NCBI GenBank assembly: GCA_951406725.2
Contig: OX597817.1
Location: forward strand, 108,686,001-108,750,000
Source: Octopus vulgaris
Lineage: Eukaryota
DNA: 64,000 nt
Reading direction: 5' to 3'
The notes beneath the pieces were generated by a model, which was given only the letters and a program-made list of their open reading frames with translations, was not told the origin of the DNA and searched no databases. A program made the position numbers and the translations under genes. Below, piece after piece: positions 1,582-60,428 of the stretch. Positions within the stretch are counted from its first letter, which is position 1; each line of letters begins with the position of its first letter.

Positions 1582-1624
1582 TTGAACCTGACAAAGACAG
1601 ACTTACTGTCGGAATATCGTTCAA
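1582..1624 (+). ncRNA. Minimal type I hammerhead-like motif (two core substitutions), probable Penelope pseudo-LTR remnant
   Basis: TTGAAC-CTGACAA-A-GACAG(actta)CTGTC-GGAA-TATC-GTTCAA: perfect 6-bp stem I, 5-bp stem II, palindromic stem III ATAT, ATC triplet; G8A and A13G versus consensus. Confidence 0.75.
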
Positions 1625-2684
1625 CCCATAAAATATCTATTACAATCGAATCACGCTCTTCGTCTTGACTGTTTACATTTGTGAAGAGTTACGTTAATCC
1701 TTTTAAAAATATTATTATCATTATTATTGTTATTATTCAGTAGTTATATTTTTATAGTGTGCTTTCATTTCACTACCGAACGCAGCTTTGTGTGCCTTGG
1801 GTAAGTGCTGTGGTTTGCTGTGATGCTCTTATGGTTACTGTATTGAAAATGTTTTGCGTACGATATGTACAGTGCCCAGTAGTGCAATTTTCTGTATGAT
1901 ATATATATTTAAAAGTTCTGGTGTTTTTGTTATGTATTTGTCTGAATATTTTATGTTACTTAATGCGCCTACAATGATAGGAATTGTTTCTGTTTTTAGA
2001 TTCGAGTTACCTCTATTTCCAGGTCTTTGTATTTTGAAAGTTTCTCCATTTCTTTTAGAGAAACGTTGTAACCTGCTGGTATTGATACATCAATCAGAAA
2101 GCACTTCTTTCTTCATGATCTCAGACAACTATATCTGGCCTATTAGCCTTAATTTCTCTATCTGTGTGTATTGGCATATCCCAGAGTATGGTTGCTTTCT
2201 CGTTTTCTGTGACCTCTTCTGGCGTGTACTTATACCATCTTTTTTCTATTGTTATTCCATAGTGTTGGCATAGCTTCCAGTGTATGTAGGTCCCAACTCT
2301 GTCGTGTCTGTGAATATATTCCTTCTTAGCCAGGACTGGGCAGCCAAGGATAATATGATTTACTGCTTCTACAGACCTATAACCTGTTTCCTACAATTGC
2401 TTCTTGTCCATCTCCACACATTCTGCAGTTACTTGTTATGTTTCTTCTCATTATATGTTTTTGGTAATTTCTGGTGGGAACCTTTGGTCTTGTGCTACAA
2501 TTAAAAATACTTCAGTCCTGAGCTTCTCAACCATTGCTGGGATTTTTCTCTGTCTATTTCTTTTGCATTTAGTTTAGCCCAGTATTTGCCATGAAGGGGC
2601 TTTTCTTGCCATCGTTTTATTATGGACGGTTGCTGTTCTAGATTTAGTTTGGATTTCTTTTGTTTTATAGCTTTTGTTGTTGTT

Positions 2685-2798
2685 TCTTCTTCTTCTTCTT
2701 CTTCTTCTTCTTCTTCTTCTTCTTCTTCTTCTTCTTCTTCTTCTTCTTCTTCTTCTTCTTCTTCTTCTTCTTCTTCTTCTTCTTCTTCTTCTTCTTCC
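2685..2798. repeat. (TTC)n tract inside the LINE ORF (poly-Glu on the minus strand)
   Basis: Direct reading; ORF 2501-3055 stays open through it. Confidence 0.95.
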
Positions 2799-5515
2799 TT
2801 ATATTTGTTAGGAAGTATGATATTTTGCTTGTATTTGTCAGCTTCCTTAAATACTGGAAACAGGTTTTTGTTTTGCTCGTGTTTTGTGGCTATTTGTATT
2901 AGTTTTCCTTGCTTCTGAAGTAGGTATATTTGCAGTCCTATGGTGGTTATTTTATAATAGTTTTCCAGCTGTATAAGACCTCTAGCAACTTCTATGCATT
3001 GTATATATAACCTTTCTATGTCAGTTTTTAGGTGGTGCATCATAGATCCTGTCATTATTTTCCTTGTTTTTCTTTCTATTTTGGTTAGTTCATTTAGTGT
3101 CCAGTTAAGGATATTGCAGCTGTAACTTATAACTGGGACGGTTAAAGTGCTAATACCTATTGTCTTGTTATTCGCATTGAGTTCAATTTTCAGTATTGAT
3201 CTAACTTGTCTATAGTATTATTTCTTTATTTTCTCTTTCATTTGTGTATGTTGTATCGTATCTAGTTCATTGATCCCTAAATATTTGTATGTATGGCTTT
3301 GGACTAATTCTCTTATTTAATTGGCTTTATCTAGTGTGATGTTGCTACTCTTAACTAGTTTTTCTCTTTTCGGGGTTGCTTTGGCACATTTTTCTAATCC
3401 AATATCTATTTCTTTGGTAAATCCATGAACTGCCTGTAGTAGTGTTTCCAGCTATCTATCATTTGCAACGTATAGTTTTAGGTCATCCATACATAAAAGG
3501 TGGCTGATTGTTTTGCCGTAACATTTGTATCCGCATCCAGTTCTATTTAGCATGTCAGATAAAGGTGTCAATACCAAGCAGAAAAGGAGTGGAGAGAGCG
3601 TTCTCCCTGGCATATTACTCTTCTAATGGGGATAGCTTTGGTTTTTCACGAGTGCCTCTTTCGTTTGGAGCTGTAGCACTGTCTGCCATTTATTCATAGA
3701 GTATCTTGTGTATTTTATAATTATTGGTGCTACCTTGTTCATGGCTAGTGTTTCGAGGATCCACGTGAGGGGAATGCTATCAAAATCCTTTTAGTAGTCG
3801 ATCCAGGCCATACTGAGGCCTTCCTTCTTTCTACAGCTGTCTTCAGTTATGACTTTATTGATTTATTAGTTGATCTTTACAGCCGTATGAGCCCTTGCAG
3901 CATCCCTTCTGCTCTTCTGGAAACAGGTTGTTTTCTTCCAGATGCTTGCTCAATCTCTGCGATATTATTGAAGTAAACGCTTTGTAAATTGACAGGTTAT
4001 AGGTCTGTAGTTTTGTGGGTTTTGCCGTTTCAGTGGATTTGGGATTTAGGATAGTTTTCCTTTTCGTGAGCCATTCAGGCATTGTCTCTGGCTCTGCTAG
4101 TATGTCATTAAAGTTTTCAGCCAGCTTTTTGTGTATTCTTGTCAGATATTTTAACCAGAAGTTGGGGATCTTGTTGTGTTCAGGTGCCTTCCATTTGCTT
4201 GGTCTTTGCAATGTCTTGGTGATATCTTCAGTTGTTATAAGGGTCCAAAATTGCTCAGGTGCTAAGTTCGTTGTTTTAATAGTCCTTTTCTGAGGTTGTT
4301 CCCTCGCCGACCATGTTTCTTTCCAAAATTCTTCCAATTCTTCTGCTGTTGGTGCTGCAGTGATGTCTATTTTATTTTTGTCAAGTTCTTGGTAGAATTT
4401 TTTGGGGTTGGATTTGAACTGGTTTTTTTGTTCAAAGAAACGTTGGCGTTTCTTATACCGGCGGATCCCTTGTGCTTTGGCAAGGATATCTTGCTTTAGC
4501 TTTTCTTTTACCTCAGGTAAATCTTTTTCTGTAATGTTGTATTTGCACAGTATTTTCGTTTTCTTCTTTTTACTTAGTAGTGTTGATTGTCTACTAATTT
4601 CGTTAAGAATCGACAGATCTTTTCTCTTTTTTCTATTGTTTAATATTATTTATCCACGGTGTCTGTTTGGGTGGTGGTACTCCAGTTTGGATGGGTTTGA
4701 GGGAGTATCCAGCTTCTTTTGTGGCTGCAGTGGCTGCTGTATATATTATGTCATTTAGTTCAGTGATATTGCCATTTGCTTCTGTGGTTTTCAGTTCCGT
4801 GACGGCCAGGTATACGCTATTTATTATTGATGTTGTTTTATTGTCTAGTTTGATTTTTGGTAGGTATAATCGATGGTCCATTCTGAGATCTGTGGTTTTC
4901 AGTTATTTGATTATTCTCATTTTTATAGTATCATAATCATTAGGTTCCCCTTCACTGTTTTTAGATTTTAGATTTGTTTCGCCTTCCTTCTCATTCATAT
5001 GTTTGTCTGTGGTGTTCTGGATTGGTTCTTTTTGTACATTATTATACACCCTACGGTCTGGGTTTGTTGTTTTTTGTTTACTTCGTTTTTGTTGGAAATA
5101 TTACGTCTATCTTCGGGTTTTACTATCTCAGTGTTTATATTATTTGGCATTGTTGTGGGGCTACTATCTACATTTTCCTAATGTATTTTTCCTTTTAAAT
5201 GTTCTTTTTCTATTTCTAATATTTTTTTTTGCTTTGAGAATACATCTTCGTATGTTAGCTAGTTTATTGAGGTTCATTGCTGTATCCACGTCTTTATTTA
5301 GGTTATTTTTCTTCCATATTTTATATGTATATGTTGTTTTCATTCTTTCGGTTGAGCACTGCTGTAAAATAACCATGTAGGATTGAAATATATTCCTCAC
5401 GTGTCCATTTATGCCTTTTTGGTTTTATTTGCGGGACACGCGGAACAACGTCCGGCCCTTTATTTTATTTTTAAAGATGATCGTTTGTGTGTTCGAAAAC
5501 TGTAGATATGTAAGT

Positions 5516-59086: not shown

Positions 59087-59287
59087 CAGTGCTTTTCAAA
59101 CTTTTTGCTGGAGCGGAACCCCAAGGAAACATTCCACTGGCTCGAGGAACCCCTGTGCAATAATTTAATAGTCTTATGCACGCATATCTGCACAGGAGAA
59201 TTAAAAATAACTGCCGATTTTAGCAGTTTTGTAACTTCTTGCGGAACCCCTGGACTGTACTGGCGGAACCCTGGTTGAAAACCACTG
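59087..59287. mobile_element. hAT-type MITE
   Basis: TIRs CAGTGCTTTTCAA / TTGAAAACCACTG, GGAACCC subterminal repeats, 8-bp flanks CTCTATAT / CCCTATAT. Confidence 0.92.
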
Positions 59288-59859
59288 CCCTATATATATA
59301 TTCTATAGTTGGAAGAGAAAGAAAGCCAGCACAAAATTGATACTACGTCCTTATACGTCATCCAATTCTTGAAGTCCGTAAGTATAGGTAATTCTGGGGG
59401 TAATATTAGGATTTCCTTCTAATCTAAGCTGCCATTCTACATGTTTCTGGTGTCAACAATTTCAGCATTGTTCATAAAAAAATGACGAAAGATATGTTTA
59501 TGAAGAAGAGTTGTTTGCTTTTCACTCCTCGTGTGTCGATTCTGCCCATAAGAAAGAAACAAATAATACGTGGTTATAGGACATAACGCCGAGGCAACGC
59601 GCAGATGCAATGCTAGAGTGTGTATGTGTATATATATATATGTATGTATGCATCCATGTATGTATGTATGTATGTATGTATGAATGTATGTATGTATGTA
59701 TGTATGTATGTATGTATGTATGTATGTATGTATGCATGTATGTATGTGTGTATGTATTCATATACATACATATATGTGCACAAACATATATTTAGACATA
59801 CATTTAGATATGTATGTATACTTATATATATATATATATATACACATATATATATATAC

Positions 59860-60428
59860 TTTTATTTGTTTCGGTCATTTAACTGCGGCAATGCTGGAGC
59901 ACCACCTTTATCCGAACAAATCGACCCAGGACTTATTCTTTGTAAGCCTAGTATTTGTTCTATCCAACTCTTTTTGCCGAACCGCTAAGTTACGGGGACG
60001 TAAACACACCAGCGGGGACAACTGATGAAGGGAATGTTCTTTATGTTGCCCGTCTGGTTTCTCTGTTCGCCTCTTTGGTCGTTCGAAAAAGAGTTCTTTT
60101 TCTATGTTTTGGTTTTTTATCTTTTCGTTTCTCATCTTGTCTACTTTTGTTCTGATGTCCTGTACCCATATTTGCATGTATATATACATATATATGTGGG
60201 TATGTACATACATGTATGCATATATGCACATATTTATATATCATTTATATTATATCATATATATATATATATATATATATATATATATATGACGGCTTCT
60301 TTCATTTTCTGTCTACGAAATCCACTCACAAGACTTTGGTCAGCTCGAGGTGTCATGCAGTGCGACTGAACCCGGAGCCATGTGGTTCGTAAGCAAGTTA
60401 CTTACCACACAGCCACTCCTGCGCCTAT
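59860..60428 (-). mobile_element. SINE family B interrupted by a pseudo-LTR-like fragment (60012-60180)
   Basis: Tail at 59860-60011 and head at 60290-60428. Confidence 0.85.

Follow-up and report, generated by a model that had tools for sequence, protein, structure and literature searches.

A predicted split and permuted hammerhead ribozyme in a young octopus retroelement and at the ends of Naiad-type Penelope-like elements

INTRODUCTION

In a stretch of 64,000 nucleotides (nt) of the Octopus vulgaris genome (GenBank assembly GCA_951406725.2, contig OX597817.1, positions 108,686,001 to 108,750,000 of the forward strand; hereafter the window), eight sites resemble hammerhead ribozymes, and the locus raises the question of what kind of element carries each of them. 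A first-pass annotation had taken them for several distinct non-autonomous families, most without an adjacent open reading frame (ORF), which might be undescribed retrozymes mobilised by Penelope-like elements (PLEs). The present analysis gives good support to another view, in which the list of sites appears to consist mostly of known PLE biology and two sites, 58250 and 60022, lead to an apparently undescribed hammerhead topology. Judging from the sequence, RNA of the element at 57582–58460 is likely to fold as a self-cleaving split hammerhead without a backbone link between A9 and G10.1, and Naiad-type PLEs end with the same order of strands. This reading draws on the strand order, on the covariation of stems I to III and of a fourth helix (P4), on the structure of the copies and on the place of the motif behind Naiad reverse transcriptase (RT) genes. 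Comparisons with published work refer to the accessible parts of each source.

RESULTS

Two families carry a permuted hammerhead with a detached stem II strand

In the 58250 and 60022 families, the conserved blocks follow the order cleavage site, GAAA, CUGANGA, which is a non-circular permutation of the hammerhead. Stem II and GAAA had initially been placed downstream of the 58250 core; GAAA lies upstream of it instead, and no stem II follows. The 5' strand of stem II (strand a) is located 5' of all other blocks, ∼40 nt upstream of its partner and detached from A9. Moreover, the strand that follows strand a pairs with the strand preceding the core, forming P4. In the window copy (Table 1), strand a makes six Watson–Crick pairs (-8.9 kcal/mol). 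A descriptor of the split form matches the window once, at 58250, and matches none of 200 shuffled windows.

The octopus genome was then searched with a site..GAAA..CUGANGA pattern in which GUC and the core boxes were fixed and the stems left free. This gave 3532 exact matches, compared with 2 for a reversed control. Several subfamilies are present among the matches, and although the strands of stems I and III differ between them, complementarity is kept. Covariation was measured in 30 copies, hand-picked for diversity and for a retained upstream part, with truncated copies and chance matches excluded. Over the four helices (stems I, II, III and P4), 89.6% of the cells were paired and 15 of 22 pairs had changed on both sides; shuffles gave 8.8, none of 500 reaching 15, and slid registers were 42–47% paired. 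For strand a, 97% of the cells were paired and three of five pairs were compensatory, whereas a stem II formed with the downstream sequence had one compensatory pair and was no better than its shuffles.

The motif has the CUGANGA, GAAA and UH core of a hammerhead, as well as stems I to III with covariation. It shares with type SGC the order of the blocks S (site), G (GAAA) and C (CUGANGA) and the helix joining stems I and II, and it lacks the stem II strand directly after CUGANGA. Because block C is not intact, we do not class the motif as type SGC. Two other assignments of 58250 were rejected: a type II or palindromic dimer motif, because the partner strands of its stems I and III are found upstream of GAAA, and type GCS, which fits a loose descriptor but leans on weak pairing with downstream pyrimidine runs. 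The non-autonomous families had been expected to bear palindromic, dimer-type hammerheads; the 58250 and 60022 families carry the permuted, split form instead.

Table 1. Features of the window, with copy numbers found for each site in the 2.80-Gb assembly
Site	Positions	Strand	Feature	First-look genomic candidates	Both core boxes in other copies
58250	57582–58460	+	Young non-coding retro-element: one full unit (period 839 nt) plus a ∼40-nt junction repeat, between (TA)n	2017	
58250	58177–58182	+	Detached stem II 5' strand (strand a), partner 58215–58220; G10.1 at 58177		
58250	58186–58192	+	Strand b of P4, pairs with 58234–58240; links outer ends of stems I and II		
58250	58201–58210	+	Block S: stem III 3' strand, U16.1 (58204), C17 (58205), stem I strand (58206–58210)		
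58250	58215–58227	+	Block G: stem II 3' strand, GAAA (58221–58224), stem III 5' strand		
58250	58234–58256	+	P4 strand g, stem I strand h (58245–58249), CUGAAGA core (58250–58256); no stem II strand after it		
60022	60014–60240	+	5'-truncated copy of older sister family, unit ∼750 nt; 3' end approximate	1588	
24038	22547–24172	+	5'-truncated PLE: GIY-YIG ORF end (22559–23254), 3' untranslated region (UTR), minimal type I hammerhead, CUGUUGA core (24038)	848	29/29
1588	1542–1718	+	3' fragment of PLE family, U3-A8 minimal hammerhead; mutated in both core boxes	1168	18/24
35826	35775–35935	+	3' repeat fragment, type I hammerhead with a long stem II, a stem I of 2–3 bp and a palindromic stem III	1778	12/24
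51760	51660–51890	+	Old repeat, type I hammerhead, core at 51760; A9 mutated	117	6/24
54752	53971–54864	+	PLE 3' UTR and hammerhead (core 54752); stem III lost	2070	21/24
54752	53130–53485	-	Remnant of the 54752 family's GIY-YIG endonuclease, broken and in opposite orientation to the family's 3' UTR		
47836	47836–47990	+	Decayed hammerhead-like remnant (G12 lost); one weakly related locus found	2	

The 58250 element forms young tandem arrays

The region from 57582 to 58450 matches tandem arrays at 96–99%, with the junction motif at 57600 and 58439. Fifteen full units of the family are 99.3% identical between loci, and a head-to-tail neighbour is found at 834–866 nt in 11 of 25 loci (eight distinct arrays). 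The arrays begin with a partial unit, one of them being flanked by inverted pieces at both ends, and all 23 located 3' ends run into TA repeats or the next unit. The longest frame of the unit (194 amino acids, aa) has no Pfam match.

The element can be compared with two known systems. Like the animal retrozymes of the non-LTR (non-long terminal repeat) kind (Cervera and de la Pena 2020, PMC7229834; Li et al. 2026 preprint), which are regarded as non-autonomous PLE derivatives, it is a non-coding tandem repeat with one (predicted) ribozyme per unit. However, its unit of ∼840 nt exceeds the published 150–450 bp, and its hammerhead is permuted and split instead of type I. With Naiads (PMC8557442) it shares (TA)n targets, 5' truncation and tandem and inverted copies; unlike them, it has no ORF with an N-terminal GIY-YIG and a C-terminal RT (DKA motif), and its DNA is not similar to Naiad ends.

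The 60022 family is older (84–88% identity to the window copy; direct repeats at 528–761 nt in 3 of 25 loci). Its window copy cannot form the ribozyme because only strand h and CUGAUGA are kept. The 5' ends of the family were studied in the best 40 matches to a query lying wholly downstream of the site: 20 copies start 1–36 nt past the predicted cut and one within 75 nt before it (p ∼3e-8 under an even spread).

The split motif ends Naiad-type retroelements

Repeats of the window match published octopus Naiad consensus sequences at their 3' ends. Naiads were stated to be without canonical hammerheads, some being annotated with 'HHR_core' or 'HHR_half_core' (Craig et al. 2021, PMC8557442). By eye, the accessible supplement of that paper has the split form at the ends of the records that come before the headers Naiad_Aacu, Naiad_Anas, Naiad-1_Movir, Naiad_Ovul and Naiad_Omin, and also in three headerless passages; plain type CSG is seen in the record preceding Naiad_Hcon and in three more passages, with no count implied. 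Cores that fitted no descriptor in that study are resolved here into complete permuted hammerheads.

In the octopus genome, the Naiad-end motif gave 435 exact matches with the split layout and none for the control. Among 100 copies examined, 70 were long enough to keep the upstream sequence; each position of stems I, II and III is paired in 60–68 of these. The upstream stem II pairs at all six positions in 65–68 copies; with the downstream option, pairing breaks down at positions 3, 5 and 6. A broken RT with the DKA motif (L316, RT part only) terminates in the split motif, and the motif lies within 1.55 kb of the RT in 7 of 30 octopus RT loci. No intact Naiad of this octopus family was found, and the top 30 GIY-YIG loci included no Naiad at all.

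Metagenome contigs were scanned with an alignment of 14 database relatives and one octopus RT fragment. Fifty-four loci were fetched, 43 of which had at least 200 nt downstream of a Naiad-type RT. A permuted hammerhead was present downstream of the RT on the sense strand in 18 of the 43 (15 split, 3 CSG and none of types I–III), with 0 on the antisense strand and 0 in fivefold shuffles; the other 25, many of which end early, had no match within 1.5 kb. The N-terminal GIY-YIG of Naiads was found in six of the 18 motif loci (e.g. L406-L408, L419, L433), the rest being cut short or without the searched motif. P4 did not form part of the descriptor; it has a mean of 8.6 bp in the 15 split matches, compared with 3.6 in shuffled linkers (maximum 5.0 in 1000 rounds). 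The pairs G10.1-C11.1 and A15.1-U16.1 are invariant in 22 of 22 anchored members, an outcome that the scan itself largely imposes. Scans with single proteins gave no matches in metagenome or viral contigs, nor did the alignment scan in viral contigs.

The plain type CSG motifs behind Naiad-type RT in these contigs are at L429:3458-3569, L431:2908-3009 and L439:1674-1786. Further likely split hammerheads, beyond the limits of the descriptor, were seen by eye downstream of the RT in L424, L426, L437 and L443, and long C-terminal extensions follow the RT in L424, L425, L440, L441 and L444. A CUGUUGA just 5' of strand a and overlapping its start is seen in L239 and further Naiad-end copies; it is not shared by members in general and is possibly a relic of the upstream core of a CSG ancestor.

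A possible mechanism and its alternatives

We infer that the fold would be a circular permutation of a type SGC/CSG hammerhead, opened between A9 and G10.1: joining the SGC/CSG ends and reopening the chain there leads to exactly the observed order. The A9-G10.1 link appears flexible because a one-nucleotide insertion at this point is conserved in PLE hammerheads (PMC4209133), and natural SGC and CSG ribozymes cleave in vitro (PMC10085705). P4 would hold stems I and II together. A cut is predicted after C58205, between 58205 and 58206; two such cuts in a tandem transcript would release RNA of unit length, able to circularise, and a PLE reverse transcriptase/endonuclease acting in trans would prime this RNA at (TA)n. 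Copying more than once round would give arrays whose 3' end is fixed and whose 5' ends vary. The step in the 5' ends of the 60022 family, close to the predicted site, is an indirect sign of such cutting. More broadly, and with a little less assurance than for the window element, the RNA of Naiads across animal phyla and of thousands of non-autonomous octopus derivatives is probably processed by a hammerhead whose chain is interrupted within block C, where A9 and G10.1 are normally linked. Such a topology is not among the six permutations considered possible.

Several points weigh against this interpretation. Eckert et al. assumed CUGANGA and its stem II strand to be necessarily contiguous (PMC10085705), and we found in the literature no report of an active hammerhead broken between A9 and G10.1. 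The 15 changed pairs come from related copies, in which such a count overstates the number of independent events. The minimum-energy fold of the window copy, computed by a program without pseudoknots, contains neither stem I nor stem III of the model, and short linkers between P4 and stem III strain the monomer fold in some members. The purines that follow A9 can form a weak pairing with strand e of stem II in the octopus non-coding families (-5.0) or, when G8 and A9 take part as well, inactivate the core (-7.6, compared with -8.9 for the upstream strand). The step in the 5' ends of the 60022 family may also be due to RT stalling at a stable fold, and 100 Naiad-end copies have no such step, only 8 nt past the site being observable in them. 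At the DNA level, the 58250 unit resembles neither Naiad ends nor an intact PLE of 781 aa. Finally, all 59 Naiad RT matches in the octopus genome are broken (longest open frame, 292 aa), as found with a query of 45 residues that may miss other families.

The four-helix structure could be real and yet not an efficient ribozyme alone: it might depend for cutting on dimer formation, on neighbouring tandem units or on host factors, or it might serve as an RT-binding or RNA-protecting fold. The poor in vitro cleavage of PLE minimal hammerheads (PMC4209133), the P4-stem III linkers as short as 0–5 nt and the Naiad-end copies without a 5'-end step would agree with such a role. We nevertheless regard it as unlikely, given that the core nucleotides are all kept across unrelated members while the stems vary, that stem III of the split motif is not palindromic and gives no pointer to an obligatory dimer, and that the 5'-end step is present in the 60022 family. 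It is improbable that the active form of the octopus non-coding families is a plain type SGC, with the purines after A9 as stem II strand and strand a accessory or inhibitory. Three to four downstream pairs (two of them G-U) are possible in these families, with 89% of the cells paired, but the downstream helix is no better than shuffles, changes in strand e are tracked by strand a and not by the downstream run (L106, L195), and at most one downstream pair is possible in 14 of the 22 anchored members.

We see very little room for the view that each site represents its own non-autonomous retrozyme family, with a minimal hammerhead of the dimer type. Three families continue into GIY-YIG ORFs, direct second copies are rare in the type I families (0–3 of 25–30 loci), and the tandem non-coding family bears the permuted motif, even though five families have a palindromic stem III and 35826 and 51760 are without an ORF within 1.5 kb.

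Relation to published hammerheads

The split hammerhead shares with types SGC and CSG (Eckert et al. 2023, PMC10085705) the reversed cyclic block order, the intact core, a linker of 1–7 nt between stems I and II and the extra helix joining these stems. It differs from them in that the 5' strand of stem II is detached and lies 5' of the site (15 of the 18 metagenomic matches and all octopus copies). Moreover, an animal genome carries thousands of copies of it, and it is found in retroelements; SGC, by contrast, was reported from metatranscriptomes and CSG from two metagenome sequences, neither being found in genomes of known organisms (PMC10085705). Outside subscription journals and bioRxiv supplements, our literature searches turned up neither the split form nor any permuted hammerhead from a Naiad or an octopus, and the accessible main text of the O. 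vulgaris repeat paper (PMC13282606) does not mention ribozymes.

If true, the proposed topology would be one that the published permutation scheme excluded by assumption, and non-circular RNA permutations would move from rare environmental sequences to thousands of copies in animal genomes. Together with the plain CSG forms of other Naiads, non-circularly permuted hammerheads would be a common ribozyme of animal genomes. This would also overturn the reading that Naiads spread without a hammerhead and explain why none seemed present. The role of ribozymes in PLEs becomes directly testable, with an RNA of ∼90 nt, a predicted cut site and a very young element.

The other sites mostly carry PLE-like type I hammerheads

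The assembly was searched with one query per site, and 40 candidates were scored for each of the seven sites with repeat families. By sequence inspection, copies of all eight sites were located at or near the positions first given, and every window copy was imperfect. There is no perfect type I hammerhead among them: a strict type I descriptor had no match in the window or in eight shuffles. With one mismatch allowed, two settings gave 3 and 5 window matches against 0–2 in eight shuffles, and with two mismatches 3 matches were found against 1–3. Since this signal is near chance, the descriptor applied to the window alone was rejected as proof of the motifs. Rfam gave no hammerhead among the 150 of 315 window matches listed and nothing reaching the gathering score on six loci; repeat and tandem searches of the window returned microsatellites only among the matches listed. 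The motifs are credible because of family-level copies, not of the window copies alone. Seven of the eight sites belong to repeat families (117–2070 candidate copies).

The idea of many divergent hammerheads is thus upheld for seven multi-copy sites, although the window copies are close to chance when compared with shuffled sequence, and 47836, first read as an intact core, is a decayed near-singleton. The presence of several distinct hammerhead-bearing repeat families of the Penelope world was borne out by the family searches, and the four palindromic stem III sequences named at the outset are all present. Among the details, the core placed at 51757 begins at 51760, and the window copy at 54752 no longer has a stem III. 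The notion of non-autonomous ribozyme families survives for one tandem family (58250, with 60022 as its relative), but the rest are mostly truncated PLE ends.

The 1588, 24038, 35826, 51760 and 54752 families have minimal type I hammerheads with a palindromic stem III. They resemble the hammerheads of PLE pseudo-LTRs and mostly fit the published dispersed, truncated PLE hammerheads, dispersed single motifs of this kind having been described by Cervera and de la Pena 2014 (PMC4209133). Most sites had been proposed to be undescribed retrozymes. However, the 24038, 1588 and 54752 families are 5'-truncated PLE ends and not retrozymes, because longer copies continue upstream into a GIY-YIG ORF on the same strand, as expected of the C-terminal GIY-YIG of canonical PLEs. 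GIY-YIG motifs were found upstream in 13 of 30 loci of the 24038 family and 6 of 25 of the 1588 family, and the 54752 family has such an ORF in its longer copy L122. No GIY-YIG ORF was detected within 1.5 kb of the 35826 and 51760 copies (25 loci each; copies short). The 35826 family is PLE-like by its inverted neighbours in 6 of 25 loci; a 2.87-kb tandem of this family was considered as a full PLE and rejected as a local duplication of mixed repeats.

At 24038, an ORF end with a GIY-YIG match below the cut-off (E=0.0012) does adjoin the hammerhead. The family is young (97–98%), and its CUGUUGA (A6U) core is kept in 29 of 29 other copies. This fixed A6U core is not mentioned in the accessible text on PLE minimal hammerheads (PMC4209133); an A6C core has low activity (PMC3088659), and A6 changes are said to lower activity. 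The A6U core (window 24038-24075) also occurs in a second, diverged family (L019 second copy). Most copies of the 1588 family have a UUGANAA core, the U3-A8 variant described for Schistosoma PLEs (PMC4209133). In the 54752 family, the sequence of the broken endonuclease remnant sits upstream on the hammerhead strand in L122/L273. This endonuclease may resemble those of the Hydra clade.

Elsewhere in the genome, a PLE at L272:2745-5090 (G000:C16) has an open RT and GIY-YIG frame of 781 aa, an upstream frame of 359 aa, a U3-A8 minimal hammerhead and a 3' UTR that is long and repetitive. Frames of this 781-aa length hold 16 of the 150 listed GIY-YIG matches (two examined). More type I hammerhead-like motifs, in other repeat families, were seen in the flanking DNA of L040, L073, L118, L119, L177, L183 and L190.

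Other features of the window

Broken pieces of non-LTR retrotransposon RT, which we take to be R4/Dong-like, lie at 2501-4649 (-) and 11489-13049 (+) (zf-RVT E=0.009). A broken Tc5/pogo-like DNA transposase is located at 24994-26067 (-), with DDE_1 and HTH_Tnp_Tc5 both below the cut-off. Finally, local inverted repeats with arms of ∼190 nt are found at 61704-62272 and 44149-44811.

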